A DNA stretch of 31,111 nucleotides from an uncultured Burkholderiales bacterium (GCA_964539965.1 CAZILI010000003.1:1-31111), one strand, 5' to 3'. Positions 4,215 to 28,187 are shown, counted from the stretch's first letter. Translations and numbers: made by a program. Notes: generated by a model not told the origin, from the sequence alone.

Positions 4215-5087
4215 TTAGGGCTTGGCCCGTGTAGTCGCGTTGCCACGCTCGCAGGTAAGCCTGCCGCCGTCGTTACGAACTGGGCTTTGACAAGTTTCCG
4301 GATCGGCCAAGAACGTCGGCTGCCAGCGACCGACCGCGGTCATGCAGGTGGCGGATAGCACGTTGCCGTTCAATTCCAGCCCCCGACAGCCCTCGACCTT
4401 CGTGTCGACCGCCACCACCGACTCACCGGAGCAGCGCAGTTCTCCATTGACATTGGCGATACCGCCCCGACAGAGCCGATAGTTGTCCAGGTGGGTTGGC
4501 TGCCACATTCCGGCCGCATTCTTGCAAGTGCTACGTAGGGTAGTCGAGTTCACAAAACTATCACGGCAAGTTGCCAGATAAGAGCCGCGCGGCGGTGTAG
4601 TGCCTTGGTTGCATTGAAGCTGTCCTTCCACGTTGCTGATTTGCCCCAGGCACTGCGTTACGCCGACGAGTTCGGTCTTCCGCCATGTTCCACCCGCGTC
4701 CAAGCAGGTGCCATGCAAGGTATTTCCGCTTACGTAGCTATCACGGCAGCTTTGCGAGTAGGGGCCGAACGGCGCGGGGGCGCCTCGCTCGCAGACCAAC
4801 GTGCCGTTGGAGTTCGCGATGTCTCCGACGCACGCGCGAAAATCCTCCAGCCGGGTCTCGAGAAACTGGCCGCCGCGCGACTTGCAGTTACTTTCCAGCG
4901 TGCGGCCCACGACCCTGCTGTCCTTGCAGTTGAGCAAATAGCTGCCTTGAGGTGGGGATTCCGCCCAGGCCGGCGCGCCGGCGCTCCCTGTTAGCAAGGC
5001 TACGACGCCGACGACAACCCTTCCTTGCCGAGGGCGCTGCAGCGATTGACCAGGCGCCCGATGGGTGTGCTGATACATGCTCACCAT
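4215..5087 (-). CDS. Secreted cyanovirin-N-like (CVNH) repeat protein, putative lectin
   Basis: Hydrophobic signal (VVVGVVALLTGSAGAPAWA) followed by four ~58-aa repeats of GSY..xC.d..v.g.tL..xC....G.w..t.L.....C.g.i.N.nG.L.C. The start could be 5123, 5087 or 5078. Confidence 0.7.
   Translation of the reverse strand: MVSMYQHTHRAPGQSLQRPRQGRVVVGVVALLTGSAGAPAWAESPPQGSYLLNCKDSRVVGRTLESNCKSRGGQFLETRLEDFRACVGDIANSNGTLVCERGAPAPFGPYSQSCRDSYVSGNTLHGTCLDAGGTWRKTELVGVTQCLGQISNVEGQLQCNQGTTPPRGSYLATCRDSFVNSTTLRSTCKNAAGMWQPTHLDNYRLCRGGIANVNGELRCSGESVVAVDTKVEGCRGLELNGNVLSATCMTAVGRWQPTFLADPETCQSPVRNDGGRLTCERGNATTRAKP
4243..4955 (-). repeat. Four tandem protein-level CVNH-like repeats, each with 4 Cys
   Basis: R1 QGSYLLNC..SNGTLVC; R2 FGPYSQSC..VEGQLQC; R3 RGSYLATC..VNGELRC; R4 KVEGC..DGGRLTC. 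Confidence 0.8.
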
Positions 5088-5202
5088 CGTACTCCGCACC
5101 CCGCCGTCGAACAATTCGGGCACGGGTTCGACGTCGAGGCGGCCAGCGTTGTCAAGTTATGTCGCAGGGTGGTGCCAAGGCTAGAGCGACCGCGAGACTA
5201 TG

Positions 5203-5215
5203 CAAGTGATTGATT
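5203..5215 (-). promoter_or_regulatory. IHF-binding site consensus
   Basis: Minus strand reads AATCAA-TCAC-TTG, an exact match to WATCAA-N4-TTR. It lies 30 bp upstream of the sigma54 -24 box. Confidence 0.55.
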
Positions 5216-5244
5216 CGACGTGAGCACGAGCGGCCAGCGGCAGA

Positions 5245-5260
5245 TGGCACATCGCTTGCA
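5245..5260 (+). promoter_or_regulatory. sigma54 (RpoN) -24/-12 promoter
   Basis: TGGCAC-ATCGC-TTGCA matches TGGCAC-N5-TTGCW with exact GG-N10-GC spacing. It is intergenic, 75 bp before ATG 5336, with RBS GAGGAGG at 5322-5328. Confidence 0.8.
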
Positions 5261-5335
5261 CTGTAGTCGCCATCGGGTGGCGGCGCCGACCGAACGATGC
5301 GAAATAGGCGCAACCCATCATGAGGAGGCTCTTAC

Positions 5336-7657
5336 ATGACAACCAGCGAGTTCGAAGCGAGCGTTCTTGCCGAGGAGGAAGCAGTCGGCGAGAGGAGTGT
5401 CTTCACGACCCGGGAGGCTCCGTCTGTCGCACCCAAAGGCAATGACCGGCCAAGCGATTGGCCGGAGGGCGGTCCGATCGATCTGCGTGTCCATGACTTG
5501 CCACATCGCTCTTCGACTACCGAGTGGTGGTACCTCAATTGCCATGTCGCGACTCATGGCGGGAGGCAGCTCTCGTTGTTCGCAAGTTTCTTTCGCATTC
5601 TCCTCGATCAAGGCGCAGCGAGCAGCAAACCCGAGTATGCGCACGCGCTGAGTTGGGCGCTGGTCGACCCGAGCGCCGGGAAGTATTACGCCGATTCGCT
5701 GGTTGATCCATGCGCGCCGGCCGTCGCATTGGAAAAGCTCGAACGCGGCGAATGCGGTTTCGATCCGTTGTTGAAGCGCGCCGCCCAGGATATGTTGCGC
5801 GAGGGAAAGGTCCCGCACCCGGACCGCCTGATGGCAGCAGCCGCGCAGATTAGTCACACCAAGCTCGACTTGGACTTCGGCGGCTGCGGTTTACGTAAGC
5901 TAGAGAACGGCGCTTACGCTCTGAGTCTCACGCGCGATACGGCGGACGCTGCCTGCGAACTCGTGTTCCACCCACTGAGCGCGCCGATACGCCACGGCGA
6001 CGACGGCCTGGTGCGCGGAGCAGCGGGTGAGGGCATGTTCTACTACTTTATTCCGAAATGCCGAGTAGAGGGGCAGATCCGCGTTGAGGCCGAAGCACCG
6101 GTGAAGGTGGCCGGCAGCGGTTGGTACGACCACGAATTCGGTCAATCCCGCAAGGATCAAGAGCAAACGCAAGCTTCGTGGAATTGGATTTCGGTTCAGC
6201 TCGACAACGGCTATCAGATCTCCGCGTACGATCTCTTCGACGACGTTCGCGCGACCGGGCTCGGGCGCTGGGCGATCGTGGTAGATCCACAGGGTCGTCG
6301 CCATAAGAGCGTCAATTTTCGTCTCGAGCCGCTGACGCATTGGATCAGCACGCGTACGTTCGCCGAGTACCCGACTAGTTGGGCACTCGAAATCCCCGAA
6401 GTGGAACTGTCGCTCGAGGTCGAAGCGGCTTTCCCCGCGCAGGAGTTCGTGACCATCATTTCCGAGCCCGCCTTTTGGGAAGGTCGTGTCGGTGTGGTGG
6501 GCGAGATGAGGGGGCGGCCAGTGAAAGGCCTAGGCTTCGTCGAGCGCACGGGATTCGGCGCGCCGCGTGCGTTGCCCCAGCTCTTATCCGCAGCAGGCGA
6601 GCAGACTCGCCGCGCAGTCGGTGCGCTCCTGCCCACCAGGCCGACCGAGGCACAAGCGCGCCGTTTGATCGCCAGCGAGGCGCATCGTCATTACGTCGAA
6701 GACTTGGATCTGGACCAACACGCGCGCACCGTCCTCGCGCCGCTGCGAGAGATGATCGATCGCGGGGGAAAGGCGTGGCGCTCCTTCGCGATGCTCGCTT
6801 GCATCGACGCGGTCGGAGGCGACTCGCAACCCTTCGCCGACTGGGCGGCGTTGCCTGAGCTCGTGCATACCGGCTCGCTTATCGTCGACGACATTGAAGA
6901 CGGTTCGACACTGCGCCGCGGCGGCCCCGCATGCCACGTCATGCATGGCGAGGCGATTGCGATCAACGCCGGAAATGCCGCGTACTTTCTGGGCGAGGCG
7001 TTGCTGCGTGAGAGCCGGTTGGACGGCGAGATGAAACTACGCCTGTACGAGCTGTACTTCGAAGCGCTGCGCGCCGCTCACGCCGGTCAAGCCGCCGATA
7101 TCGACGGGCTGCGCGGCGCCATGCCCGCGGTGGTGGAAAGCGGCGCCGGCGACCTCCTCGAACGCCGCGTGTTGTGCGTGCACCGCCTGAAGTCCGCAGT
7201 GCCGGTTCGCTCCCTGGCGATGATGGGCGCGATCATCGGCAGCGGTACGCCCGAACAAGTCAGACGCATGGGTGACTACTTCGAGAAGGTCGGTCTCGCG
7301 TTCCAGATCATGGACGACGTTCTCAACCTGCGAGGCTTTCCTGAAGGGCTGAAGACCCGGGGAGAAGACATCTTCTGCGGAAAAGTGACCATGCCGATCG
7401 CCAAGGCCATGTCCCGGCTCGGACTACGACGTCGCCGCAAACTGTGGAAGGTTCTCTCAGCCAAGCCGCGCGACGCTGTCACCGTTTCCGGAGTCATCGA
7501 TGAACTGGAAGCTTGCGGTGCCATCTCCGCTTGCGTCGAACAAGCGCGGGAACTTCCGGAGCACGCCTGGCGTGCCTTGGATCCGTTGTTGAAGGACTCG
7601 CGGACCAAACTCATGCTGCGAGCATTCGGCTGGTATGTGTTGGAAAGAAACTACTGA
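5336..7657 (+). CDS. Fusion protein: N-terminal CrtC/AttH lipocalin-like domain + C-terminal trans-isoprenyl diphosphate synthase (GGPPS-like)
   Basis: N half: EWWYLN, MFYYFIP, GWYDHEFG, WNWISVQL, YPTSW, FWEG, GLGFVE. C half: GGKAWR, HTGSLIVDDIED (6887-6901), LRRG, GQAADI, FQIMDDVLNL (7313-7327), GEDIFCGK. Confidence 0.85.
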   Translation: MTTSEFEASVLAEEEAVGERSVFTTREAPSVAPKGNDRPSDWPEGGPIDLRVHDLPHRSSTTEWWYLNCHVATHGGRQLSLFASFFRILLDQGAASSKPEYAHALSWALVDPSAGKYYADSLVDPCAPAVALEKLERGECGFDPLLKRAAQDMLREGKVPHPDRLMAAAAQISHTKLDLDFGGCGLRKLENGAYALSLTRDTADAACELVFHPLSAPIRHGDDGLVRGAAGEGMFYYFIPKCRVEGQIRVEAEAPVKVAGSGWYDHEFGQSRKDQEQTQASWNWISVQLDNGYQISAYDLFDDVRATGLGRWAIVVDPQGRRHKSVNFRLEPLTHWISTRTFAEYPTSWALEIPEVELSLEVEAAFPAQEFVTIISEPAFWEGRVGVVGEMRGRPVKGLGFVERTGFGAPRALPQLLSAAGEQTRRAVGALLPTRPTEAQARRLIASEAHRHYVEDLDLDQHARTVLAPLREMIDRGGKAWRSFAMLACIDAVGGDSQPFADWAALPELVHTGSLIVDDIEDGSTLRRGGPACHVMHGEAIAINAGNAAYFLGEALLRESRLDGEMKLRLYELYFEALRAAHAGQAADIDGLRGAMPAVVESGAGDLLERRVLCVHRLKSAVPVRSLAMMGAIIGSGTPEQVRRMGDYFEKVGLAFQIMDDVLNLRGFPEGLKTRGEDIFCGKVTMPIAKAMSRLGLRRRRKLWKVLSAKPRDAVTVSGVIDELEACGAISACVEQARELPEHAWRALDPLLKDSRTKLMLRAFGWYVLERNY

Positions 7658-7667
7658 AGGAGGAGCT

Positions 7668-8195
7668 ATGTTGGACGGGATATGCCTACAAGACGTCATG
7701 CCGCATTCATCGCCAGTCTTTTTGCCCCAGACGAGAAGCAGGAAGCGCTCGGCCTCCGTGTTTCATGAATCGATCTGCCTGCACACGGAGTACGGTCCGC
7801 AATTCATCGACCTGACCGATCGCGTGAACGAGATCGTCGCGCAGTCCGGCATGTCCTACGGAATGGTGAACATACAAACGCGCCACACCACGACCGCGAT
7901 CGTCATCAACGAAAACGAGCCGCTGCTCCTGGAAGACATGAAGCTCATGCTCGATCGCTTGGCGCCGGCTAGCATGGACTACCAGCACAACAATTTTGCC
8001 ATTCGCACCGTCAACATGGTGCCGGGCGAAGTCGCCAACGGTCACGCGCACTGCCAAGCGTTGCACCTACGCGCCTCCGAGACCGTCAATTTGCTCGACG
8101 GTCGACTGCAACTGGGGCGCTGGCAGCGCATCTTTCTGCTCGAGCTTGACCACGCCAGGGAGAGAACCGTGTCCGTGCTGCTGCTTGGCCAATGA
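7668..8195 (+). CDS. yjbQ: YjbQ/UPF0047 family protein (secondary thiamine-phosphate synthase-like)
   Basis: HTTTAIVINENE, NGHAH and LQLGRWQRIFLLELD motifs. Start set at ATG 7668 after the AGGAGGAG RBS. Confidence 0.8.
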   Translation: MLDGICLQDVMPHSSPVFLPQTRSRKRSASVFHESICLHTEYGPQFIDLTDRVNEIVAQSGMSYGMVNIQTRHTTTAIVINENEPLLLEDMKLMLDRLAPASMDYQHNNFAIRTVNMVPGEVANGHAHCQALHLRASETVNLLDGRLQLGRWQRIFLLELDHARERTVSVLLLGQ

Positions 8196-8243
8196 CCGTG
8201 AGTGGCTTCGTCCGCCACGCCGTTCAACCCCGCCCGTAGCAAA

Positions 8244-9536
8244 ATGTACGCGCTATTCACCGCTATTCCTCTGATCGGGCATTTGAACCCGCTCGTGTAC
8301 CAAGCCGTGGAGTTGCAGCGCCGTGGCTGGCGGGTCGCGGTCGCCAGTACCGCCGAGGTCGGCGCATTCCTTGAGCGTGAACATCCGGCCGTCCCGTTCC
8401 TCGCGCTCGGAACGTCAGGCGGCGCGGCCGCCTATCTCAAGCGCGTGCAAGCGCTCGCCTCAAGCGACCGGGATTTTGCGCGCGGCGCGTTGCGCATCGT
8501 GCGAGCGCTGAAAGCGATGTGGCCTTGCATGTTTGACGGCTTGACCGACGCCGTGCGCCAAGACCGCCCCGACGTCATGGTCGTTGACTTGTTCTCTTCA
8601 GCTGGCATGTGCGTGGCCGAAGCAAACGCGATTCCGTTTGTCGTCAACAACGCCAACTTGCTGCCTTGCCTGCCTGTGCAAATGCTGCCTGCGGCGAATC
8701 ATGTTCCCACCTTGTTCTCCGGCCGCTCGATCCGGGCCGTCGGGCGCGCGCGAGCATGCCTGGCGCCGTTGCTTCGCCGACTTGCTGCCGGAGCAGCCGC
8801 ACTGACAGTGGGGCGAGATCTCAACGTCTTGCGGCGCAGTCGAGGTTTGCGCTCGATCGATATCCCCGAATTGCTCAACGGGCGCCCAATTCTGGTCGAC
8901 GGGGCATTCGGGCTCGAATACGAGCGTGCGCTTCCTGCCAACGTACACATGGTGGGCGCCATGCTGCCGGCGGAGCCGGCTCCTCTACCGGGAGATCTAG
9001 CGGCGTGGCTCGATCGGGGGCGGCCGGTGGTCTATGTCAACCTCGGCACCATGACGATCGCCACCCCCAAGCAGCTCGGCACGATGCGTGATGCGTTGAA
9101 GGAGGGACCGTTTCGCGTCCTATGGATAGTGGGAGAGTCTGATGCAGGGGCGCTGGCGCCCGCGGCTTCCGAGCGCTTCAAGATCCTACCTTGGGGCCCG
9201 TCTCCGCTTGCGGTGCTCTCGCATCCCAATGTACGCGCCTTTGTCTCTCACTGCGGCATCAATAGCGTGCATGAGGCGATCCAGGCGGGCACGCCGATCG
9301 TGGGCATCCCGATGTTTGCAGACCAACTCGACATGGGCGTGCGCCTGAGCGACGCGGGCATCGGCATTTGCCTCGACAAGGTCCGATTCACGGCATTCGA
9401 ACTGCGCCAGGCGCTGCAACAAGCAATGAGCGATTCGTCCTTCGCCGTAAATCTCGCGCGGGTGCGCGGATGTTTTCAGCGCGCCGGCGGGCCGGCGCGC
9501 GCGGCCGATCTTATCGTGCAAGCGGCAAGGAGCTGA
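8244..9536 (+). CDS. GT1-family (UGT/MGT-like) glycosyltransferase, paralog A
   Basis: N-terminal IGHLNP, PDVMVVD, and a PSPG-like box WGPSPLAVLSHPNVRAFVSHCGINSVHEAIQAGTPIVGIPMFADQ. Start 8244 was chosen by analogy to paralog B (MYALF); 8202 is possible. Confidence 0.9.
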   Translation: MYALFTAIPLIGHLNPLVYQAVELQRRGWRVAVASTAEVGAFLEREHPAVPFLALGTSGGAAAYLKRVQALASSDRDFARGALRIVRALKAMWPCMFDGLTDAVRQDRPDVMVVDLFSSAGMCVAEANAIPFVVNNANLLPCLPVQMLPAANHVPTLFSGRSIRAVGRARACLAPLLRRLAAGAAALTVGRDLNVLRRSRGLRSIDIPELLNGRPILVDGAFGLEYERALPANVHMVGAMLPAEPAPLPGDLAAWLDRGRPVVYVNLGTMTIATPKQLGTMRDALKEGPFRVLWIVGESDAGALAPAASERFKILPWGPSPLAVLSHPNVRAFVSHCGINSVHEAIQAGTPIVGIPMFADQLDMGVRLSDAGIGICLDKVRFTAFELRQALQQAMSDSSFAVNLARVRGCFQRAGGPARAADLIVQAARS

Positions 9537-9537
9537 C

Positions 9538-10893
9538 ATGTACGCGCTATTCGTTTCCCTTCCCTACGTCGGACATGTCAATCCACTGTTGCGACAAGCC
9601 CAGGCGCTGCAGCGGCGCGGTTGGCGTGTCGGCGTCGCCGGTATGCGGGAAATGGCAAGACACGTAGCGGCCGAAGCGCCGGATATCCCGTTTGTCGATC
9701 TGGGTGCGTTGGGCGACTTAACGCTCGAACTGCGCCGCCTGGAACTGACAGCCTCGATGGATCCCAACTACCTAACCGGCGCGTTGACCATCGCCAAGGG
9801 ACTCGTTTGGGTCGGGCCCCTCATGCTCGAGGGTTTGTGCCGGCACCTGGCGCAAGAGCGTCCCAACGTGGTCGTGACCGACATCTTCACCGCGGCCGGA
9901 GCTTGTGCCGCAGAGCGTTTCGGCATTCCGTTGGTCTTCAACAATCCGTCGTTGCTGACGGGGGTTCCGGTCAGCCTGCTGCCGCCTGCGCCGGACGTTC
10001 CGTTCACCCTCACGGCCCGTTCCATCCACGCAATGCGCTGGTGCGATCGCGCCATCGAGCCGTTGCGCCGAATCCTCAGCGACTGGGCAACCGCGGCCAC
10101 CGTGGGTCGCCATCTCAACGATCTGCGCAAGCGCGCGGGGCTGCCGGCGACGAATCTTACCGACCTCTTGCGCGGCAAGCCCATCCTCGTGAACGGATCG
10201 TTCGGCCTCGAGTACCGCCGAGCGCTGCCCGAAAATATCCATATGGTGGGACCTATGCTGGCGCAAGCCGCACCGGCTCTATCTCCCGAACTCGACCGCT
10301 GGCTGACACAAGGTCCGCCGGTGGTGTACGCCAACCTCGGCACCGTGGTGAAGCCTTCCACTTCACAACTCTCCCATTTGGCGGAGGCGCTCAGATCGAC
10401 CCGCAGGCGCGCACTCTGGGTACTCAAGCCCGACCTTGCCCCGGGACGGTGCATCAGCGAGACGGAAAGCCTGCGAGTGGTGCAATGGGTAACTTCGCCG
10501 CGCGCGATACTTGCCCATCCCAACGTCAAGGCCTTCGTTTCGCACTGCGGCATCAACAGCGTCTACGAGGCGCTCGATGCCGGCACACCGATCGCCGGGA
10601 TTCCGTTCTTCGCCGACCAGCGCGACATGGCAGTGCGCGTGGCGGATGCCGGGGTAGGTCTTTGGCTCGACAAGTCGCGCTTTACCGCAAAGACGCTGGC
10701 CGCACTTCTCGACCGGCTCGTCGACGGAGACGGGTTTGCCCAGCGCATCGCCCCGCTACGGGCGGCCTTCTCCGAGGCGGGCGGCGCTGAGCGAGCAGCC
10801 GACATCATCGAGCGATCAGCGAGCGAACAGCCCGCAGCCGGCTTGGCCGCCGGGCGCAGGGCACTACGCTCGGAGGCCGGCCAATGCGTGTAG
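9538..10893 (+). CDS. GT1-family (UGT/MGT-like) glycosyltransferase, paralog B
   Basis: VGHVNP, PNVVVTD and WVTSPRAILAHPNVKAFVSHCGINSVYEALDAGTPIAGIPFFADQ. It starts 1 nt after the paralog A stop. Confidence 0.9.
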   Translation: MYALFVSLPYVGHVNPLLRQAQALQRRGWRVGVAGMREMARHVAAEAPDIPFVDLGALGDLTLELRRLELTASMDPNYLTGALTIAKGLVWVGPLMLEGLCRHLAQERPNVVVTDIFTAAGACAAERFGIPLVFNNPSLLTGVPVSLLPPAPDVPFTLTARSIHAMRWCDRAIEPLRRILSDWATAATVGRHLNDLRKRAGLPATNLTDLLRGKPILVNGSFGLEYRRALPENIHMVGPMLAQAAPALSPELDRWLTQGPPVVYANLGTVVKPSTSQLSHLAEALRSTRRRALWVLKPDLAPGRCISETESLRVVQWVTSPRAILAHPNVKAFVSHCGINSVYEALDAGTPIAGIPFFADQRDMAVRVADAGVGLWLDKSRFTAKTLAALLDRLVDGDGFAQRIAPLRAAFSEAGGAERAADIIERSASEQPAAGLAAGRRALRSEAGQCV

Positions 10894-10969
10894 GCGCGCT
10901 TGCGTGCATTGCCGGCGATAGGAAACTGTGGCATGCTGTTATGCTTCGTGGCTGATTGGAGGAGTCGCC

Positions 10970-11596
10970 ATGTCTTCTGGTTCTAAGTCATCTCCTAACG
11001 TGGAGGCGCTCAACGCGAAGGCCGGCCAAGCTGCGCTGGCGGCCGGCGGGCTGCCCTCTGCTGAAGGTGTCAGCGTGGATAAGATCCGCGACCTGCTGTT
11101 CGGTAGCCAAATGCAAGATTACGACCGCCGATTCGGTGGGCTCGAGGAACGTTTCCAGCAGCGCATCAAGGAAGTCGAAAACGAGGCCACTCGGACGTAC
11201 ACCGGCCTGGAAGCGGCGACCAAGAAGCAGCTCGAATCGTTGGCGAGTCAGTTGCGCGAGGAAAAAGAGGTCCGATCCGACGCCGAGAAACAAATCGAGC
11301 GTGGGTTGCGTGAACAGGTGCAGGGGTTGGAGAAGCGGGTCGGGCAGCTGTCCGAGCATCTGGCGCAGGTGGAGCGTGACTTCGCCGACCGCCTTGCACA
11401 GGAGTCGCAGACCTTGCGCGATGAGATTCGGCGCCGGAACGACGAACTGCGCAACACAATCGAGCGCATGTTCGGTGAGTTGAGCAACGTCAAGACCGAC
11501 CGGAATTTGCTTGCGGGCCTGTTCGTCGAGATCGCCAAGTGCCTCAATCAAGACCTGAGTCCCAAGAGCGTCGGCAGAACTGAATTGGCCGCGTGA
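10970..11596 (+). CDS. Coiled-coil hypothetical protein associated with the OmpA/Rab module
   Basis: GGAGGAG RBS before ATG 10970; VDKIRDLLFG.QM.DY..RF followed by about 140 aa of heptad-like, charged helical sequence. Confidence 0.75.
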   Translation: MSSGSKSSPNVEALNAKAGQAALAAGGLPSAEGVSVDKIRDLLFGSQMQDYDRRFGGLEERFQQRIKEVENEATRTYTGLEAATKKQLESLASQLREEKEVRSDAEKQIERGLREQVQGLEKRVGQLSEHLAQVERDFADRLAQESQTLRDEIRRRNDELRNTIERMFGELSNVKTDRNLLAGLFVEIAKCLNQDLSPKSVGRTELAA

Positions 11597-11641
11597 ATAG
11601 GGAAACTCTGAAAGGGGGGCCTCGGCCGCGCCGTTCTCGAC

Positions 11642-13477
11642 ATGGTCTCCAGCGTTGCTTGGCCTGATTCCGAGTCCGAGCGCAAGAAAGGCGAGCAGCG
11701 ACTTGCCGCGCTGCTGATCGACCTCGCCCGAAATCTCAATCGTGATGTTGCCGCCGGCGTACCGAGTCAGGTAGTCGATCCGCGCCTAGAAGAACTGCGC
11801 CACATCGTCGTCGGGCCGGAGCGCTCCGGTCTCGAGCGGCTGCAACAGCGGCTCGACGATCCCGAACAACTCACCGCAACCGTCAGTCAGGTGCTTGCTC
11901 CGGCGATCGTGCAAGCGGCTGCGCGCGACGAACGCCTTGGCGAAGCGCTGTCCCCCATGGTCGAGACTGCTACTCAGCTCTCGATCAAGAAAGATCCGCG
12001 CACTCTCGTCAACATCTTGTATCCGCTGATCGGGCCCGCGATCCGCAAGTCGCTCAGCGAGACCCTCGAGCAGTCGATGAAATCGCTCAACGAAATGCTG
12101 CGCCAGAGCTTTTCGTGGCGCGGACTGCGTTGGCGGCTGGAGGCATATCGAACCGGGACGACGTTCGCTCAAGTGGTGCTGCGGCACACACTGGTCTACC
12201 GCGTGGATCACGTGTTTCTCATTCACCGCCATACCGGACTGCTGATCGAGCACGTTACCGCCGATCCCCTAACCGAGAAAGATCCGCAGCTCGTCTCCGG
12301 TATGCTGACCGCCATTCAGGATTTCGTGCGTGATTCGTTCTCTGCGCCTAGCGATGCCGGGCTGGACACCTTGCGATTCAGCGAATGGCTATTGTGGTGC
12401 GTGGAAAGCCCGCACGCGTTCCTGGTCGCGGTGATACGCGGCAATCCGCCGCAGGAGTTGCGCGAGTGGTTGCGCGACACATTGATTCAGATCCATGCCC
12501 ACAAACATCAAGCGTTGGAGCGGTACGAGGGAGATCGCAACGGCTTTCTCGACATACACGACCTACTCGAGCGTTGCCTGCGCGTGCAAGAGCGGCCCGA
12601 GCCGGCCAAGACTTCAACGGTTTTCTGGTTGTTGGTCTTGGTCTTACCGCTGGCGCTGCTGGTGGCGGGGGGGTATGCGCTGTACGAGCGCAGCCAAGAC
12701 CAGCGGCGCTTTGCCGGCTACGTGAATAGACTACGCGCTGAACCAGGAATAGTCGTGACTGCAACGGAAATGCGCGACAACCGTTGGCACGTGAGCGGTC
12801 TGCGCGATCCGCTCGCGGTCGATCCCAAGGACCTGATAGTCGACAGTGGGCTAACGGCCGAGCGGGTGATCGGCCATTGGGCGCCATACCAGGGACTCGA
12901 CCCGGAATTGGTGTTGAAGCGCCTGAAAGCGAGCCTCGAAGTCCTGCCGTCGGTCACCCTGTCGATAGAGAAAGGGGCGATACGCGCTCGTGGACTCGCC
13001 CCGCACTACTGGTTGGAGAAGGCGCGCGCGGTGGCGAGCGTTCTTCCGCCAGGATCGCCACAACTCGACCTTACGTCGGTTAAGGATGTCGACAAGACGG
13101 CGCTGGAGGGCGTACGCGAGTCGATCGAATCCTATGTGATTTTCTTCGACAAGGATGCTGCGACACCGACAGCTGGACAGGAGGCGCAAATCAACGCGTT
13201 GGCCGCGCAGTTGCGCGAATTGGCGAGCGTCTCGCGCAAGTTGCGACTAGGTGCTCGTGTGACCGTGATCGGTCATGCCGACGCTACCGGAAAAGAGACT
13301 ACCAATCTTGCCCTGAGCATCGCGCGCGCCGAGGTGGTGCGCTCACTGCTCAAGCGTGACGGGGTCGACCCCGACTTGTTGGCGGCGCGCGGAGCGGGTC
13401 GTCTGGAGCCGGTGGTATCCCCTGGTGAAGCCGATCGCAACCGGCGGGTGTCGTTGACCGTGACCTTCTCCGAGTAA
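11642..13477 (+). CDS. Single-pass membrane protein: helical + longin-like cytoplasmic region, TM helix, periplasmic domain, C-terminal OmpA-C peptidoglycan-binding domain
   Basis: TM segment VFWLLVLVLPLALLVAGGYALY (12620-12685). The C-terminus VIGHADATG..TNLALSIARAEVV...NRRV is an OmpA-C signature. The N-terminal part has VFLIHRHTGLLI...LVSGMLTAIQDF. Confidence 0.8.
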   Translation: MVSSVAWPDSESERKKGEQRLAALLIDLARNLNRDVAAGVPSQVVDPRLEELRHIVVGPERSGLERLQQRLDDPEQLTATVSQVLAPAIVQAAARDERLGEALSPMVETATQLSIKKDPRTLVNILYPLIGPAIRKSLSETLEQSMKSLNEMLRQSFSWRGLRWRLEAYRTGTTFAQVVLRHTLVYRVDHVFLIHRHTGLLIEHVTADPLTEKDPQLVSGMLTAIQDFVRDSFSAPSDAGLDTLRFSEWLLWCVESPHAFLVAVIRGNPPQELREWLRDTLIQIHAHKHQALERYEGDRNGFLDIHDLLERCLRVQERPEPAKTSTVFWLLVLVLPLALLVAGGYALYERSQDQRRFAGYVNRLRAEPGIVVTATEMRDNRWHVSGLRDPLAVDPKDLIVDSGLTAERVIGHWAPYQGLDPELVLKRLKASLEVLPSVTLSIEKGAIRARGLAPHYWLEKARAVASVLPPGSPQLDLTSVKDVDKTALEGVRESIESYVIFFDKDAATPTAGQEAQINALAAQLRELASVSRKLRLGARVTVIGHADATGKETTNLALSIARAEVVRSLLKRDGVDPDLLAARGAGRLEPVVSPGEADRNRRVSLTVTFSE

Positions 13478-13489
13478 GGCGCCCGGGAC

Positions 13490-13984
13490 ATGCTGCAGAA
13501 GAAGATCTGCATGCTGGGCGCGTTTGCGGTCGGCAAGACGAGCCTGGTTCGGCGCTACGTCGACAGCATCTTCTCCGATGCCTACCTTACCACCGTGGGA
13601 GTCAAGATCGACAAGAAATCCCTCAACGTTCAGGGTCGCAGCGTGGACTTGATCGTGTGGGACATCGCCGGGGAGGACGACATCTCGGCGGTGCGTATGA
13701 GCTATGTGCGCGGCGCCTCCGGCTACCTGCTGGTGGTGGACGGCACCCGGCCGGAGACGTTGGACGTGGCGGATTCGTTGCGCAAACGCGTTGCTTCCGA
13801 AATCGGCAGCGTTCCGTTCGTGGCGTTGCTCAACAAGCAGGATCTGCGTGAGCGCTGGGCGATTTCTCAACGTGCTGTGCAGGAGCGCGAACAAGACGGC
13901 TGGCTGATCCAGTTCACCAGCGCGAAGACCGGCGCGGGAGTGGAGTCGGCGTTCCAAGCGCTCGCAGATCGCGTCGCCGGGTAG
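13490..13984 (+). CDS. Ras/Rab-like small GTPase (stand-alone, 164 aa)
   Basis: G1 GAFAVGKTS, G2 YLTTVG, G3 WDIAGE, G4 NKQD, G5 TSAKTG. There is no C-terminal lipidation tail. Confidence 0.92.
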   Translation: MLQKKICMLGAFAVGKTSLVRRYVDSIFSDAYLTTVGVKIDKKSLNVQGRSVDLIVWDIAGEDDISAVRMSYVRGASGYLLVVDGTRPETLDVADSLRKRVASEIGSVPFVALLNKQDLRERWAISQRAVQEREQDGWLIQFTSAKTGAGVESAFQALADRVAG

Positions 13985-14027
13985 CCGCTGAGTCGCGCTT
14001 TCGTTTCCGTGCCGAGCACTCAAACAC

Positions 14028-15293
14028 ATGTCCCGCCTAACCGCAGTTGACAGCCTTTCGGCGCGCACGGTGACGGAGCCGGAATGGCCGGCTTCCGTCA
14101 CACAATTTCTCCTATCGAACCTGCGTGCGCGACGCGCGGTCGCTTTTCTCCGAGTCGATGCTTCGCTGCTTGTGGCCGATGCGGGTGGTGAACTGGCGAA
14201 CTATGGGTTGCAGGGGGTGCGCATCGGCGTATCGGCGTGCGAACAGGCGGTGTTCTTGGCCGGTTTGCTGCCCGCGCCCGAGTTGCCTTTCTGCCTCGAA
14301 TCGGTGCAGATGCCTTCGGGGCGTTCCGCCGATCTGCACTTGGTCGCCGACTCCGCCGACACTTGGGTGTTGTTGTTGGATGTGAGCGTCGAGCGGGACG
14401 AGGCGTGGCGCTTCCAGCAGCGGGCATACGAGATGACCTTGCTGAGTGAGCGCGAAGGACAGCTGATTCAGCGCCTCGAAAGCGCAAACCGCTCGTTGCA
14501 GCGTACGCAACTCGCTCTGGAGCAGTCGCGCGAGGCGTTGTTACGCGCCAACCGCCGCCTGGAGCAGGAACTAACCGATGCGGCTAACTACGTGCGCTCC
14601 ATCTTGCCGCCGCCGCTGTCGACGCCGTTCGAAGTGGATTGGCGGTTCGTGCCGTCCACCGAGCTAGGTGGCGACTCGTTTGGCTATCACTGGATCGACG
14701 AACATCACTTCGCGTTGTATATCCTGGATGTTTGCGGGCACGGCGTCGGCTCGGCGCTGCTGTCGGTGGCCGCCAGCAACGCGCTGCGCTCCCAAGCCTT
14801 GCCGAGCGCGGATTTCCGTGAGCCGGACGAAGTCCTCACGGCGTTGAACCAGGCGTTTCTGATGGAGAAGAACAACGATCTGTACTTGACCATTTGGTAC
14901 GGGGTCTACCATCGCGGCTCCAGGCAACTCGAGTATGCCTGTGCCGGCCATCCGCCGGCGTTGCTGCTGCGCGGCCCTGCGCACGAAGCGGCCCGAGTGG
15001 ACGAGTTGCGCGCCAGGGGCACGGTGCTCGGCATTACCTCAGGCGTGAGATACCGCAGCCAAACCACCACGGTGCCGCCTGACACCCGCCTGTTTTTGCT
15101 TACGGACGGCGCCTTCGAAGTGCGTAGACCCGACGGCACAGTATTGCCCTATGCCGAATTCCTCGACCATCTGGTGCAGCCGATCGCCGATGGTACTTCG
15201 GAGCTGGACCGGCTGTTGACCTTCATGGGCGAGACTCACGGACCGGGGCCGCTCGAGGACGACTTTTCCGCGGTCAAGTTCCGCTTCCCTTAG
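14028..15293 (+). CDS. SpoIIE/RsbU-like PP2C Ser/Thr phosphatase with N-terminal PAS-like domain and coiled-coil linker
   Basis: ELGGDSF, ILDVCGHG, CAGHPP, LTDGAFE and EDDFS motifs are intact. The N-terminal ~120-aa domain ends in WVLLLDVS and is followed by a heptad helix. Confidence 0.88.
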   Translation: MSRLTAVDSLSARTVTEPEWPASVTQFLLSNLRARRAVAFLRVDASLLVADAGGELANYGLQGVRIGVSACEQAVFLAGLLPAPELPFCLESVQMPSGRSADLHLVADSADTWVLLLDVSVERDEAWRFQQRAYEMTLLSEREGQLIQRLESANRSLQRTQLALEQSREALLRANRRLEQELTDAANYVRSILPPPLSTPFEVDWRFVPSTELGGDSFGYHWIDEHHFALYILDVCGHGVGSALLSVAASNALRSQALPSADFREPDEVLTALNQAFLMEKNNDLYLTIWYGVYHRGSRQLEYACAGHPPALLLRGPAHEAARVDELRARGTVLGITSGVRYRSQTTTVPPDTRLFLLTDGAFEVRRPDGTVLPYAEFLDHLVQPIADGTSELDRLLTFMGETHGPGPLEDDFSAVKFRFP

Positions 15294-15321
15294 GCTATCA
15301 AGAACCCGTCCGACCGTTCGG

Positions 15322-16758
15322 CTACTCTTCGTCGTCGGTTCGATCGACCTCGCGCTGCCGAACCAGTCGCTTATTGAGTGCGTGGCGCGAGATACCCAAT
15401 AGGCTGGCCGCCACGCCTTGGTTGCCGTCGGCGCGCCGCAGCGCCTCTTGAATTAGCGCCTGCTCGGTCTGCTTCAAGGTAGGAAGCTGCTCCGGGAACG
15501 ACATTACCGCCGGATCCGACTCGTCCTCTTCCGTCACTTCGTCTTCGGCCTGCTGGCCGAGAATCGCTTCTTTGAAGCTCTGCAGCGAGAGGATGGTGCC
15601 GCGATGCCGCGCAACGGCATCGAATACCAACGCCTCCAGCTCTCTGATGTTGCCCGGGAAACCATATGTCTTGAGCAGCTGAAACAATGCCGGCGGAACA
15701 CTCGGCTCCGGCTTCGCCAGCGCCCGCGCCGCCTTTTCGACAAAATGATCTACTAGCAGCGGCAGATCTCCCGGTCGCGCCCGCAGCGGCGGCAAGTGGA
15801 AGTGATGCGTGCGCAGACGGTAATACAGGTCTTTGCGGAATTTTCCCTCGCTTACCGCGCGAAGGACGTCGCTATTGGTGGCGACGATGACCCTCGCGCG
15901 TGACTGGCGCGGCTTGTCTGCCCCCAGCGGATAGTAGGTGCCGTCCTGCAGCAGACGCAGGAGCTTGACCTGGGAGGCGATCGATAGGTCGCCGATCTCG
16001 TCCAGGAACAGCGTTCCTTCGGCGGCGCTGGTGACCAGTCCCTCTCTCGGTCGATCGGCGCCGGTGTAAGAACCTTTGGTATGGCCGAACAGTGTGTCCG
16101 AGAACATCGTATCGTCCAGCCCCGCCACGTTGACCGCGACCAGTTCGCCGCGCCGGCCGGACAGTCGATGTATCGCCTTCGCGATGAGTTCCTTGCCGGT
16201 GCCGCTCTCGCCGGTGATAAGTGCAGGCTGCGGCGAGGGCGCGATCGCCTCCAGATAGCGAAAGATCGCCAGCATCGTTTTGCTCTGCGTGACGATCTCG
16301 GATATCAGTCTGCTTTCGCGCGGGCTATCGGTGAGCAGGCTGTCTTTCAGAGAGAGGACCTCGGCGCGCAGGGCGAGGATCTCCAGGGCGCGGTTCACCG
16401 AGGAAATCAGTCGCTCCGCGTCCAGCGGCTGCATGAGGCGGTCGATCGCGCCGGTCCGCGAGGTCAGCGGTCCGCCGCCCGGACCATCTTCACCGCCGAC
16501 CAGGATGATCGCCACCTCGGGATAATGTAGATGGATGCGCTCGAGCAGCTCGACACCTTCCGAGTCCGCGCCGCGCGTTGCGAAGACGAGCACGGCACCG
16601 TCGTGCTTGGCAAGCGTTGCCAGCACCTCGTCGCGCTCGTCCAGTTGTAAGAGATTGGTGACGCCCGCGCTGCGCAGCACCTCGGCCGCGTCGTCCAGCA
16701 AGATCCCTTCGCCTGCCACCAGCAGGATCGGCAGTGTGCTGATCTCGTTGAGTTTCAT
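15322..16758 (-). CDS. sigma54-dependent activator (bEBP): degenerate receiver + AAA+ + Fis-type HTH
   Basis: Walker A GESGTGKE, LFGHTKGSYTGA, Walker B LFLDEI, FRKDLYYRL, FPGNIREL and a C-terminal HTH GNQGVAASLLGISR. Start set at MKLNE (16758) rather than the ORF-track 16959. Confidence 0.9.
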   Translation of the reverse strand: MKLNEISTLPILLVAGEGILLDDAAEVLRSAGVTNLLQLDERDEVLATLAKHDGAVLVFATRGADSEGVELLERIHLHYPEVAIILVGGEDGPGGGPLTSRTGAIDRLMQPLDAERLISSVNRALEILALRAEVLSLKDSLLTDSPRESRLISEIVTQSKTMLAIFRYLEAIAPSPQPALITGESGTGKELIAKAIHRLSGRRGELVAVNVAGLDDTMFSDTLFGHTKGSYTGADRPREGLVTSAAEGTLFLDEIGDLSIASQVKLLRLLQDGTYYPLGADKPRQSRARVIVATNSDVLRAVSEGKFRKDLYYRLRTHHFHLPPLRARPGDLPLLVDHFVEKAARALAKPEPSVPPALFQLLKTYGFPGNIRELEALVFDAVARHRGTILSLQSFKEAILGQQAEDEVTEEDESDPAVMSFPEQLPTLKQTEQALIQEALRRADGNQGVAASLLGISRHALNKRLVRQREVDRTDDEE

Positions 16759-17019
16759 GGCACGACGACGCCTGCGCCGGGCATTTGGCGCTCCGCCGCG
16801 GAGCCGCTGTCGCGTTGCCAATACTGGGACAACACTACGATTGACCTCCTCCAGGCGAATCGACAGTGTCAAAAAGGCGCTCGGGCCAGACGACCTAGGT
16901 GTCCTGAGACGGCGCGCCGAGCCGCATTGTAGCCTTTCTGTCCTCGTATTGCCCGCCATTGGAGCGGCGTTGTGAATGCCCGGCGGTTTGGCTAGACTGT
17001 CGCCTCATCAGGAATCCTT

Positions 17020-17469
17020 GTGATCGAAGACCGGTCGCCTCGGAGTCAGCGAATCAGCACGCGCGCGGTTGTCGCCAATCTGCCGTCGCTGCTGGACTTC
17101 GTTCATCAGGCGTGCGAAGGGGTCGGTGTGGCGGCTTCAGTCACCTCATCACTCAAGCTTGCCGTGGAGGAGGTATGCATGAACATCATCACGCATGGCT
17201 ACGCCGGCAGCGAACCGGGACCGATCGAGTTGTCGTTTCGCGCGCAACGCGATTCGATTACCGTTGTCGTTGCCGATCGCGCCAAGCCGTTCACTCCCGA
17301 GGCCGTTCCTAGCCCCGATTTGGGCACCACTTGGCGCAGCCGCCGCAGCGGCGGCTTGGGCTGGCATCTGGTCAAGCAGATGGTCGATCATGTCCGCCAC
17401 GAGCGAATTGTCAGTGGAGGTAATAGCCTGACTCTAGTGAAGTACATAAAGCCGTTGGATTCGGCATAG
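17020..17469 (+). CDS. RsbW/SpoIIAB-like anti-sigma factor / serine kinase (HATPase_c_2)
   Basis: LAVEEVCMNIITHGY (N box), ADRAKPF and GGLGWHLVKQMVD (G2 box). Confidence 0.88.
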   Translation: MIEDRSPRSQRISTRAVVANLPSLLDFVHQACEGVGVAASVTSSLKLAVEEVCMNIITHGYAGSEPGPIELSFRAQRDSITVVVADRAKPFTPEAVPSPDLGTTWRSRRSGGLGWHLVKQMVDHVRHERIVSGGNSLTLVKYIKPLDSA

Positions 17470-17474
17470 ATACC

Positions 17475-17828
17475 ATGGAAGTCACTTCACGCAACGTGGG
17501 AGGTGTCATCGTCTTGTCGGTGAGCGGTGCTATCGACGGCTTGGCCGCCGACGCACTGTTCGGGGCGCTCGGCGGCCAGATACGCGACGGCCATACTCGC
17601 TTGGTCGCCGATCTGAGCGGCGTCAACTACACGGGCAGTGCCGGTCTGCGCGCGCTGTTGGTGACGCTCAAAGACGCGCGGCGGGGCGGCGGAGATCTCT
17701 ATCTGAGCGCGGTTCAACCAGAAGTCTTAAGGGTGCTCGAACTCAGCGACCTGACGAGTATCTTGAAGCTGTATCCGGACGTCGAGACGGCGGTGGCGAG
17801 CTTCCGCTCGTCGGCGCCCGCGCGGTAG
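17475..17828 (+). CDS. STAS-domain anti-anti-sigma factor (RsbV/SpoIIAA-like)
   Basis: LSVSGAID, DLSGVNYTGSAGLRAL with the phosphoacceptor Ser retained, and VLELSDL; 5 nt after the RsbW-like gene. Confidence 0.88.
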   Translation: MEVTSRNVGGVIVLSVSGAIDGLAADALFGALGGQIRDGHTRLVADLSGVNYTGSAGLRALLVTLKDARRGGGDLYLSAVQPEVLRVLELSDLTSILKLYPDVETAVASFRSSAPAR

Positions 17829-19491: not shown

Positions 19492-20343
19492 CTACTGAGC
19501 GTCGATGCGAAACCGGTACAACTTCTCGCCGGTTTGGTATGCGATCTGACGAGCGATCGGCGAAGGCAACTGGGCGAGCCATTTGCGATGCCAAACGGCA
19601 AGGGCAGGCACGTCCGGCCAGCGCGAAGGCGTCCAGGTGTCGCTGCCGACGACGAATCGGTCGGGGAAGCGCAGAAAAAGCGCGCGCCAGCTCGGCGCCA
19701 AGGCGCCTTCCGGATCGGCGACGTCGTAGCGGTACGACAGCTCGACCCACAGGTTCGGAAACCGCTCCAGCCACCGCTCGATCGTCTCGATCGGCGTGGT
19801 GATGCCGGCGTGCGCCCACAGCACGCGCGCCTTCGCGTCATGGGCAAACAATCTCTCGATCGCGGCGGCATCCGAGTGCGCGTGCAGGATGAGGTCGTTC
19901 GCGACCGCCAACTCCACCACCCGGCGAATGACGTCGGTTTCGGCTTCCTTGCCGTTGAGGTGGAACTCGCCGATGCCGCGATAGCTTCCGCGCTTCAGTT
20001 CTGCTTGCAAGTAGTCCGGCAACTCCGGATCGCGCCACCATGTCGCGCGGTCGGCATACCAGGTCTCGAGGCTCGTGGTCTTGCGGTAGACCCTGAGTTC
20101 GGCGATGAACCGTGACCGATCGGCCGCCACCAGCTTGAGCGTGCCGTCGTTCGGCGTGCTCGAGAGTAAGGCCTTCTTGATGCCGGCCTGGTCGAGAAGC
20201 TTGAGTGCAGTCGCGACCGGGTACTCATCCCAGGCGTTGCCGTTGTAGTGAATATGGCCGTCGAACAAAGGCAGTTCGTCGCCGCCGAGCGCGGCGCCGG
20301 CAGACAGAAGCAAGCTGAGTAACAGGGATCGGAGTGTGTTCAT
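19492..20343 (-). CDS. Secreted amidohydrolase-family protein
   Basis: Signal peptide, LFDGHIHY (HxH), GIGEFHL, LHAH, WAHAG and FVVGSDTW. Its start overlaps the CCP stop by 4 nt. Confidence 0.82.
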   Translation of the reverse strand: MNTLRSLLLSLLLSAGAALGGDELPLFDGHIHYNGNAWDEYPVATALKLLDQAGIKKALLSSTPNDGTLKLVAADRSRFIAELRVYRKTTSLETWYADRATWWRDPELPDYLQAELKRGSYRGIGEFHLNGKEAETDVIRRVVELAVANDLILHAHSDAAAIERLFAHDAKARVLWAHAGITTPIETIERWLERFPNLWVELSYRYDVADPEGALAPSWRALFLRFPDRFVVGSDTWTPSRWPDVPALAVWHRKWLAQLPSPIARQIAYQTGEKLYRFRIDAQ

Positions 20344-21476
20344 GGTGGGGGCAAGGGATAATCCTTGAAAGCGGCGCGTGCTTGGTCGGCCAGCTGCTGC
20401 ACGTTGTCGCCGGTGAGGGAGCGTAAGAATTCTACTAGCGCTCGCTTGTCCTCTTCGGAGAGAGCCCGCAGCTCCGGAGGCAAGACCTTGCTCGCATCGG
20501 TTGCTGCGTTAGGCCGATGAGATTCGACGACCGCTTCCAGAGTCGCCAGCGAGCCGTCGTGCATGTAGGGCGCAGTCAGCGCGACGTTGCGCAGGCTCGG
20601 AGTTCGAAACGCGTTCTTGTCGGCGACCCGTCCCGTCACTTCGAATCGCCCCGCGTCGCGGCTTATGGGCTCTGAGACGCTCGCCAGCGCGGCGGCATCC
20701 ACTTCGACGTATACGTCGGGAGCGAGCTGCACCTTGTGCTTTTCGGCCGGCGTCGCGCTCTGTCCGACATCGTGGAAGCGATGGTCGGTGAACAAGCCAC
20801 TAGCCTCGCCGTAGCGGTGGCAGCTGGGGCAGCCCAACGCGTTGAAAACCGAAAATCCCCGTTGCGCCTCGCTCGACAGCGCCTGCGGCTCACGTTGCAA
20901 GAACCAGCGATCGAAACGCGAGTTGGCTGCCAGCAACGTCCGCTCGTAGCTTGCCAGCGCTTGGCCGATAGTTTCCCTGCTCGGGCCGCGTCCGTCGAAT
21001 GCCGCTTCGAACAGCCCGCGATAGTCAGCGAGCGACTTGAGCCTGCCCGCGACTTGTTCGACCGATGCATTCGCCATTTCATTGCGCGCCAACAGGGGCC
21101 GCCAGACTTGATTCTCCAGGCTCGACTCGCCGCCGTCGCGCAGCAACGCAGGCTCAAACGCGACGTTGAGCAGGCTCGGCGCGTTGCGGCGCACGCTTCT
21201 GCCCTCGAAGCCGATCGGCGTCGCCATGTCGTTTACCGCAAAAGCCTGCTCGGGCACATGGCACATGGCGCAGGACATGGTGCCGTTCGGCGACAAGCGT
21301 CGATCCATGAAGAGCTTGCGTCCCAACACGATCTTGGCCGGCGTGAGAGCATTGTCTGCCGGCGTGGTCAACGCCGGCAGACCGAGGGGGACCGTCACCT
21401 GAGCCGCTGCCGGTCCCAGCCCCGCTAGGCAAATCACCACACTGACGCGAGCGGCGAGGGCAGTCGCTGCGGTCAA
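20340..21476 (-). CDS. Di-heme cytochrome c peroxidase / MauG-like protein
   Basis: LGRKLFMD..LS, CAMCH, RNAPSLLN, CPSCH and FRTPSLRNVALTAPYMHDG; located in the mto cluster. Confidence 0.88.
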   Translation of the reverse strand: MTAATALAARVSVVICLAGLGPAAAQVTVPLGLPALTTPADNALTPAKIVLGRKLFMDRRLSPNGTMSCAMCHVPEQAFAVNDMATPIGFEGRSVRRNAPSLLNVAFEPALLRDGGESSLENQVWRPLLARNEMANASVEQVAGRLKSLADYRGLFEAAFDGRGPSRETIGQALASYERTLLAANSRFDRWFLQREPQALSSEAQRGFSVFNALGCPSCHRYGEASGLFTDHRFHDVGQSATPAEKHKVQLAPDVYVEVDAAALASVSEPISRDAGRFEVTGRVADKNAFRTPSLRNVALTAPYMHDGSLATLEAVVESHRPNAATDASKVLPPELRALSEEDKRALVEFLRSLTGDNVQQLADQARAAFKDYPLPPP

Positions 21477-28176: not shown

Positions 28177-28187
28177 CTGTGCGACAC

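Follow-up and report, generated by a model that had tools for sequence, protein, structure and literature searches.

A probable lineage-specific juxtaposition of an isoprenoid-glycoside cassette, a Group 1 Rup GTPase module and a degenerate sigma-54 activator in an uncultured Burkholderiales bacterium

Does a run of eight closely spaced genes, led by a sigma-54 promoter and closed by a sigma-54 activator, constitute one regulatory circuit, or have separate systems come to lie side by side? The question is raised by a locus of an uncultured Burkholderiales bacterium (GCA_964539965.1, CAZILI010000003.1:1-31111; the whole stretch of 31,111 nucleotides that was analysed is here called the window), for which an original prediction made from the sequence alone had proposed an integrated feedback circuit, in which an envelope-sensing GTPase switch controls production of a glycosylated isoprenoid, while conceding that the two halves could be unrelated neighbours. 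The physical description given there was borne out by an open reading frame (ORF) map coupled with Pfam and NCBIfam scans, as eight co-directional genes on the + strand (g1 to g8) occupy 5336-15293 with a largest gap of 76 nucleotides (nt), preceded by a perfect -24/-12 sigma-54 element at 5245-5260 and followed by a convergent sigma-54 activator gene (g9) and a kinase/STAS gene pair (g10 and g11). In our assessment the region is probably (at roughly 70%) a lineage-specific juxtaposition of three units, namely an isoprenoid-glycoside cassette (unit A, g1-g4), a Group 1 Rup module with a PP2C output (unit B, g5-g8) and a degenerate sigma-54 activator (unit C, g9).

Integration into one feedback circuit is unsupported because units A and B were found together at none of 83 Rup loci and none of 19 loci of the g1-type fusion gene, a result that counts heavily against the circuit as originally proposed and leaves the accompanying hedge of two unrelated neighbours as the better-supported reading. 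Using tblastn with all window proteins, homologues of g1-g4 were detected at 0 of 80 metagenomic Rup loci, which had been retrieved with a g6 profile, and at neither L001 nor L002, and gene calls with Pfam families, the sole material for the Rup place of P0080, likewise contained no g1-g4 homologue. With respect to the depth of flanking sequence, 34 of the 72 loci with a g5 match extend at least 1.5 kb upstream of g5, and 14 extend at least 6 kb. The g5-g8 module was in turn found at 0 of the 19 fusion-gene loci. Among 132 genes that flank Rup modules, a Pfam census returned no prenyl synthase, glycosyltransferase family 1 (GT1) enzyme or YjbQ protein, the only families to recur being those of signalling proteins (HATPase_c_2, 12; HATPase_c, 10; STAS, 4; HisKA, 4; Sigma54_activat, 2). 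The pairing of units A and B, which was seen nowhere else in the loci compared, seems to be a chance local event and not an assembled circuit.

Unit A opens with g1 (5336-7657, +), which encodes a protein of 773 amino acids (aa) comprising an AttH/CrtC-like double lipocalin at residues ~60-410 (PF07143, E 2.2e-18; PF17186, E 2.6e-23; AttH, PDB 2ich, E 4.6e-17), bearing a WYDHEFG motif, and a trans-polyprenyl diphosphate synthase at residues ~466-773, with DDIED as its first aspartate-rich motif (FARM) and DDVLN as its second (SARM). The polyprenyl synthase previously recognized in the run is the C-terminal half of this fusion. The fusion family numbers at least 630 proteins, and 120 of 120 among the matches listed carry the same three Pfam domains. 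Its members derive from Bacteroidota, Cyanobacteria, Chloroflexota and Myxococcota (named sources being Spirosoma, Fibrella, Flavobacterium, Calothrix, Merismopedia, Chloroflexota and Myxococcota, at 45-64% full-length identity to g1), and in the family alignment, where mean column identity is 63%, WYDxEFG, the FARM DDxxD and an unusual SARM DDxLN are invariant. The FARM region of g1, GSLIVDDIED, contains no insertion and has the small residues G and S at positions -5/-4, with no aromatic residue there. The synthase had been described as a type III-like geranylgeranyl diphosphate synthase (GGPPS), a description which holds at the level of the FARM but not for overall similarity, as plant and archaeal GGPPS give the best PDB matches (E 4e-26 to 1e-22) and yeast BTS1 matches only at 2.6e-15. 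Small residues at -5/-4 without an insertion also occur in long-chain synthases, and NCBIfam equivalog scores for g1 all fell far under their cut-offs; a product of C20 or longer is possible.

Two known enzyme types invite comparison with g1. Carotenoid 1,2-hydratase, CrtC, resembles the AttH/CrtC lipocalin pair of g1 together with its conserved acidic/His motif, but the phytoene synthase and desaturase of the CrtC context are absent from the window and from related cassettes, and for this reason a carotenoid substrate for g1 is unlikely. Fungal prenyltransferase-terpene cyclases (copalyl diphosphate synthase, 8v0f/9q3i) also join a chain-elongating prenyltransferase to an isoprenoid-modifying domain, and the prenyltransferase domains match; in g1, however, the partner is a lipocalin-type domain instead of an alpha-helical cyclase, and an invariant Asn occupies the third SARM position. 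The literature searched yielded no paper on an AttH/CrtC-prenyltransferase fusion and no characterised member of the family.

The remaining genes of unit A are g2 (7635-8195, +), which encodes a YjbQ/UPF0047 protein and overlaps g1 by 23 nt, its translation apparently being coupled to that of g1, and the genes g3 (8202-9536, +) and g4 (9538-10893, +), which follow after 6 nt and 1 nt, respectively. The latter two specify UDPGT/MGT-type GT1 glycosyltransferases, in agreement with the two UGT-like enzymes expected, and are tandem paralogues with 47% identity to each other. The neighbours of fusion genes at 60-62% identity to g1 were compared on independent contigs. A YjbQ gene lies directly after the fusion gene in three of them, being followed by P450, LMF1 and Methyltransf_21 in L014, by FAD_binding_4 in L100, and by FAD_binding_4, a glycosyltransferase (GT), LMF1, Methyltransf_21 and another GT in L101. 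The fusion gene is followed by FAD_binding_4, Methyltransf_21 and Glyco_tran_28_C in L015 and L016, by a UDPGT-type GT and a second GT in L102, and, in the cyanobacterial contig L003, by UDPGT, a flavin adenine dinucleotide (FAD) oxidase and P450, a g3 homologue being located 1 kb downstream of the fusion gene. By analogy with such neighbourhoods, g1-g4 look like a recurrent cassette for the synthesis of a glycosylated isoprenoid, and this part of the original prediction is a reasonable one given the recurrence of the fusion gene beside YjbQ, GT1/GT28-type transferases, FAD oxidases and P450s.

The steps that can be proposed for this pathway derive from the known chemistry of the families concerned (CrtC hydratases and CrtX-type GT1 enzymes), CrtC and CrtX-type enzymes being known to act on carotenoids by hydration followed by glycosylation. 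The C-terminal half of g1 would build a trans-polyprenyl diphosphate, and its AttH/CrtC-like half would most likely protonate a terminal double bond and then either hydrate it, giving an alcohol, or cyclise it. The YjbQ protein g2 would assist in the pathway, and the paralogues g3 and g4 would add sugars at the resulting hydroxyl. An unlikely alternative is that the product of g1-g4 is not a free glycolipid but a carrier lipid or a precursor of an envelope glycoconjugate, that is, a dedicated polyprenyl phosphate on which a glycan is assembled for export. The G and S at -5/-4 of the insertion-free g1 FARM do resemble long-chain synthases such as IspB, and related cassettes include DprE1-like FAD_binding_4 oxidases, MurG-like Glyco_tran_28_C proteins and the membrane protein LMF1; yet GT1/UDPGT/MGT-type enzymes usually glycosylate hydroxyls on small lipophilic acceptors, the invariant AttH/CrtC-like domain suggests C=C hydration, for which a carrier lipid has no need, and domain scans detected no flippase or polymerase gene in the cassette.

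Unit B corresponds to a system that was defined computationally as Group 1 Rup by Wuichet and Sogaard-Andersen in 2014, the GTPases of which are the closest bacterial relatives of eukaryotic Rab, Ras, Rho and Ran (PMC4316618). The published neighbourhood has four genes. Their products are a coiled-coil protein, a second protein in which an unknown domain is combined with a transmembrane segment and an OmpA domain, a Ras/Rab-like GTPase that lacks the Gln of G3, and an output protein bearing an invariant Gln in its N-terminal region, the typical outputs named being GGDEF/EAL proteins and histidine kinases (PMC4316618). All four features are shared, one by one, by g5-g8, which, as judged by synteny and motifs, is a Group 1 Rup module that differs in its PP2C output. 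The first gene, g5 (10970-11596, +), begins 76 nt after g4 with an ATG at 10970 that has GGAGG ahead of it (an alternative GTG lies at 10928), and encodes a cytoplasmic coiled-coil protein for which the domain scan returned coiled-coil-type matches only. It is followed after 45 nt by g6 (11642-13477, +; 611 aa), the longin-fold/transmembrane/BON/OmpA protein discussed below, and after a further 12 nt by g7 (13490-13984, +), which encodes a Rab-like small GTPase of 164 aa (PF00071 Ras, E 2.9e-29). The Rab-like character claimed for this GTPase was confirmed, as nearly all of its top 60 PDB matches are Rabs, with Rab23, Rab21 and Rab7 the best. Its motifs are GAFAVGKT (G1), DIAGED (G3, without the catalytic Gln), NKQD (G4) and SAK (G5), the G3 motif of Ras and Rab being DTAGQE; it has no C-terminal lipidation motif and is 53-80% identical to homologues in the same position of related loci. 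The module ends, after 43 nt, with g8 (14028-15293, +; 421 aa), in which a Rup-effector N-domain (nt 14028-14552) is connected by a coiled linker to a SpoIIE/PP2C phosphatase domain at residues 224-420 (SpoIIE, E 2.7e-39). Gln131 of g8 is invariant in alignments of 24-26 output proteins with PP2C, cyclase, kinase and sigma-54 outputs, and a PDB profile search with the N-domain retrieved no significant solved homologue.

In nearly all of the 80 related loci g5, g6 and g7 are collinear, and the N-domain of g8 is kept as the C-terminal output varies, the 26 downstream genes specifying SpoIIE/PP2C (10), adenylate/guanylate cyclase (7), histidine kinase (4-5) or sigma-54 activator (2) domains; the window holds the PP2C variant. 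Relatives derive from metagenomes of soil and sediment type, and L001 and L002 have flanks typical of Gram-negative bacteria. The closest relative, in L001/L002 (13900-21857; g6 59% identity), adjoins and is convergent with an lpxB-lpxA-fabZ-lpxD-skp-bamA envelope biogenesis cluster, an adjacency that is probably coincidental. No experimental characterisation of any Group 1 Rup system was found in the literature searched.

The domain termed unknown in the published system is modelled here, in g6, as a longin fold. The protein is ordered as a cytoplasmic helical region (residues 11-183), the longin-fold domain (~185-315; nt ~12194-12586), a transmembrane segment (325-348; nt 12614-12685), a BON-like domain and an OmpA-like domain (514-602). 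In the AlphaFold2 model of g6 (predicted local distance difference test score, pLDDT, 78) a beta-beta-alpha-beta-beta-beta-alpha unit is present at residues 187-293, and residues 160-320 modelled alone (pLDDT 76; predicted template modelling score 0.67) adopt a beta-beta-alpha-beta-beta-beta-alpha-alpha longin topology. A Foldseek search with the latter model matched Sec22b (template modelling scores 0.63/0.77, root-mean-square deviation ~3 A) as well as AP sigma, Mon1-Ccz1 with Ypt7, TRAPP Bet5/Trs23 and Ykt6 (E 2e-4 to 5e-3), with roadblock proteins (Ragulator, MglB) matching more weakly, while the whole protein returned OmpA/BON matches only (Rv0899, Pal and OmpA), which made the separate modelling of the cytoplasmic fragment necessary. 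The models therefore support a longin fold for the cytoplasmic domain of g6, and the longin-like domain of the original prediction can be placed, on predicted structure only, at residues ~185-315. The periplasmic part resembles Rv0899 (BON plus OmpA-like). In longer homologues (those of L057, L059, L064, L071, L072 and L074, and proteins of 750-1030 aa) the BON-like domain (query residues ~350-490) occurs up to three times before OmpA. The encoding of a small GTPase beside a longin/roadblock-fold platform is a feature shared with MglA-MglB and with eukaryotic Rabs and their longin exchange factors (Mon1-Ccz1, TRAPP and DENN), but here the fold resides in a membrane-anchored, peptidoglycan-binding protein and g7 is Rab-like rather than MglA-like; the literature searched contained nothing relevant on bacterial longin partners.

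Domain identities and conservation in the module are observed, and the direction of signal flow is inferred from them. It may be envisaged that g6 would anchor the module in the inner membrane and bind peptidoglycan via its BON and OmpA domains, its longin-fold domain forming, with the coiled-coil g5, a platform for g7, probably as an exchange factor or scaffold. The N-domain of g8, with its invariant Gln131, would both read the GTPase, which has no catalytic Gln of its own, and turn it off, and this reading would control the PP2C domain of g8. To regard g5-g8 as a membrane-anchored, peptidoglycan-binding small-GTPase switch is thus reasonable in the light of the domains, the models, the Foldseek matches and the match to the Rup neighbourhood.

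A possible target of the g8 phosphatase is encoded further downstream, where g10 (17020-17469, +) specifies an RsbW-like anti-sigma-type serine kinase (HATPase_c_2, E 1.1e-26) and g11 (17475-17828, +) a single-domain STAS protein (E 3.7e-20), whose Ser in DLSGVNYTGSAGL (GSAGL) aligns by eye with the phospho-Ser of SpoIIAA, Ser58. The parts list drawn up earlier was largely right, but had missed this pair as well as the lipocalin pair of g1, the YjbQ protein g2 and the PP2C domain of g8. The RsbU-RsbV-RsbW and SpoIIE-SpoIIAA-SpoIIAB systems similarly comprise a PP2C phosphatase (g8), a STAS protein with a phosphorylatable Ser (g11) and a HATPase_c_2 kinase (g10); the present set differs from these systems in that the input of g8 is a small-GTPase effector domain instead of an RsbT-binding or response-regulator domain, and in that the genes run in the order kinase then STAS and are parted from the phosphatase by g9. 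On this model, the PP2C domain of g8 would act on a phosphorylated STAS protein, for which g11 is the sole candidate nearby, and g11, once dephosphorylated, would capture the kinase g10, freeing some target. Neither a sigma factor nor any other sequestered target was detected by domain scans of the window, none recurs beside related modules, and nothing relevant on a Rup-linked partner switch was found in the literature searched.

Most PP2C-type Rup modules carry an attached STAS and RsbW-like pair, which adjoins ~12 of the 15 such modules with enough flank and also the P0080 locus. In the window, g10/g11 lie 1.7 kb downstream of g8, past g9, and in the reverse order to that of the module-linked pairs. 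When compared with the pairs of L002, L021, L024, L025, L031, L033, L037, L046 and L055, g10/g11 show 23-39% identity to module-linked pairs, whereas the main upstream group is internally 47-66% (STAS) and 41-52% (kinase) identical. The window pair is, on these identities, probably a different lineage of partner-switch pair. Its low identity to the module-linked pairs suggests that the native upstream pair was lost or replaced at the place where unit A now abuts the module, and points to a rearrangement at the 5' edge of the Rup module, where unit A now sits.

The convergent sigma-54 activator described as closing the run is real (ORF 15322-16959, -; Sigma54_activat, E 2e-55) and faces g8 across a gap of 28 nt. 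Its start is probably Met68 at 16758, giving g9 as 15322-16758 (-) with 478 aa, comprising a pseudo-receiver, an AAA+ domain in which the GAFTGA loop reads GSYTGA, and a Fis-type helix-turn-helix (HTH). Orthologues are numerous, with 60-65% full-length identity to g9 and ~70% identity in AAA+ plus HTH, and the three orthologue contexts examined were all operons of CCP_MauG, a DAHL-PAS kinase and the activator, beside neither unit A nor unit B. Compared with these NtrC-family activators, g9 conserves the AAA+ domain and the HTH but has lost the receiver catalytic residues and the adjacent kinase: where the orthologues have DD, D, T and K (acidic pair, phospho-acceptor Asp, Thr and Lys), g9 has AG, A, G and Q, and domain scans found no cognate kinase adjacent to g9 or encoded elsewhere in the window. 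A CCP_MauG gene (20340-21476, -) persists 3.4 kb from g9 on the same strand, with g10, g11 and a short-chain dehydrogenase/reductase gene intervening. The possibility that g9 is a second Rup effector was rejected, as BLASTP and hhalign comparisons of its N-terminus with the Rup-effector N-domain gave no similarity (hhalign probability 0.2%). Unit C, which has lost its phospho-acceptor site and its cognate kinase, is the sole candidate for activating the 5245 promoter.

This promoter, TGGCACATCGCTTGCA (TGGCAC-N5-TTGCA; 5245-5260, +), matches the sigma-54 consensus at 11/11 positions and is the sole such match in the 31 kb on both strands, against 0.01 expected in shuffled sequence; it begins 91 nt and ends 76 nt ahead of the g1 ATG (5336), in accordance with the original prediction that a sigma-54 promoter leads the run. 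It is not conserved upstream of g1 homologues, the exception being a 9/11 match in two Myxococcales metagenome-assembled genomes. A repeat search located an inverted repeat, CGTCGAAC-N14-GTTCGACG, at 5105-5134, ~150 nt upstream of the expected start site; its half-site TTCGACGT occurs again at 5214, and GCGGCCAGCG occurs again at 5139 and 5230. The stretches 5127-5148 and 5214-5239, both ahead of the promoter, form the two copies of a bipartite direct repeat (TTCGACGT ... GCGGCCAGCG). The repeats in 5105-5239 are speculative candidates for activator binding sites. Comparison of the region upstream of 5245 with sigma-54 promoters near g9 orthologues gave chance 8-mers only, and shared activator sites were rejected. 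Just upstream of the promoter and divergent from it lies a gene (4215-5123, -) for a 302-aa protein with tandem cyanovirin-N homology (CVNH) lectin domains.

The claim that the run contains no obvious terminator also stands, since a scan of the window gave 13 terminator-like sites against 10.2 expected, which is the chance level, and 0 of the 13 lie in intergenic gaps. At the g4/g5 boundary RNA folding identified a single structure, a 13-bp stem-loop with several G-U pairs and no U-tract at 10882-10911 (+), over the g4 stop codon, the whole-gap folding z-score being 0; at this boundary between the cassettes the hairpin could serve in processing or stabilisation, or act as a weak terminator. 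Candidate sigma-70 promoters in the g4-g5 gap are weak, with no convincing internal promoter visible. Some Rup loci have sigma-70-like promoters of their own ahead of g5, none of which carries over to the window, and a promoter motif conserved ahead of g5 from locus to locus was rejected, the upstream regions being too heterogeneous.

Several observations weigh against juxtaposition. Many of the sampled contigs are short, and the comparison of the junction covers relatives in the collections that stand no closer than ~60% identity. GC content at third codon positions (0.72-0.82) is even over units A and B, which means that neither of them was acquired recently. Both units lie on the same strand in the same orientation, 76 nt apart with no canonical terminator, and such a gap, with neither a terminator nor a convincing sigma-70 promoter, makes a single sigma-54-driven transcript plausible; co-transcription of g1-g8 from the sigma-54 promoter is possible in this genome. 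The placement of g9 between the PP2C gene g8 and the kinase/STAS pair g10/g11 is suggestive. Finally, in two distant Rup modules, those of L060 (3709-5070) and L065 (3350-4726), the output is a sigma-54 activator fused to the invariant-Gln N-domain, from which it follows that sigma-54 transcription is a natural Rup output in some lineages.

Taken as a feedback circuit, the region would operate as follows: g6, as the sensor of envelope state, determines which nucleotide state g7 adopts, and g7 acts on g8, whose PP2C domain dephosphorylates g11; g11 then captures g10, which otherwise keeps g9 inactive, and g9, once freed, fires the promoter at 5245, so that the glycolipid and sensor genes are transcribed and the loop is closed as the product modifies the envelope. 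We regard this scheme as improbable. It accommodates the occurrence in the window of a single perfect sigma-54 promoter together with a single activator, the requirement of g9 for another input now that all four receiver catalytic residues are lost and no cognate kinase is encoded in the window, the location of g9 between g8 and g10/g11, the short gaps without a terminator, the fusions in L060 and L065 and the divergent activators that adjoin Rup modules in L083 and L084. Against it, the halves never co-occur in the 83 and 19 loci, the N-terminus of g9 is unlike the Rup-effector domain (hhalign probability 0.2%), g9 orthologues belong to the unrelated MauG/DAHL-kinase operon, g10/g11 are not orthologous to the module-linked pair, no upstream motif is shared, and the literature searched held no precedent for an RsbW-like kinase controlling a sigma-54 activator. 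The fuller version of the scheme, in which a Rab-like GTPase and its membrane-anchored, peptidoglycan-binding longin partner, as a prokaryotic counterpart of the Rab/longin pair, would have been rewired via PP2C, STAS and kinase to release g9 and thereby drive a glycolipid and sensor operon, is likewise improbable.

It is very unlikely that g5-g8 represent a Zorya-like anti-phage envelope sensor, a peptidoglycan-anchored complex whose coiled-coil tail would report envelope damage, as the weak PADLOC matches that suggest it (g5 to ZorA tails, E 2e-6; g6 to ZorB, E 4.5e-4) span generic coiled-coil and OmpA segments only, g7, g8, g10 and g11 are without a PADLOC match, there is no MotA-like channel, nuclease or other effector, and the outputs elsewhere are ordinary signalling domains. 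Elsewhere in the window, a long ORF (27165-29153, +), residues 409-616 of which form a Ser/Thr protein kinase domain, overlaps on the opposite strand with the start of a gene for a luciferase-like monooxygenase (26408-27379, -), and the true start of the kinase ORF is probably further downstream.

On the preferred reading, that of three juxtaposed units, the integrated circuit is an idea that should not be adopted without transcript data, and what makes the locus interesting is, on the one hand, a Rup module that combines a Rab-like GTPase with a longin-fold partner and a tractable phosphatase output and, on the other, the uncharacterised family of fusion enzymes. This AttH/CrtC-prenyltransferase family is large, strongly conserved and without an assigned product, and its members are candidates for a new bifunctional terpenoid enzyme. 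The PP2C/partner-switch output offers, in the form of STAS phosphorylation, a simple biochemical read-out for first functional assays of a Rup system. If the g6 partner is truly a longin, Rab-type GTPases and longins were paired either before eukaryotic trafficking existed or separately from it, and such a pairing in bacteria would bear on the origin of the eukaryotic GTPase machinery.

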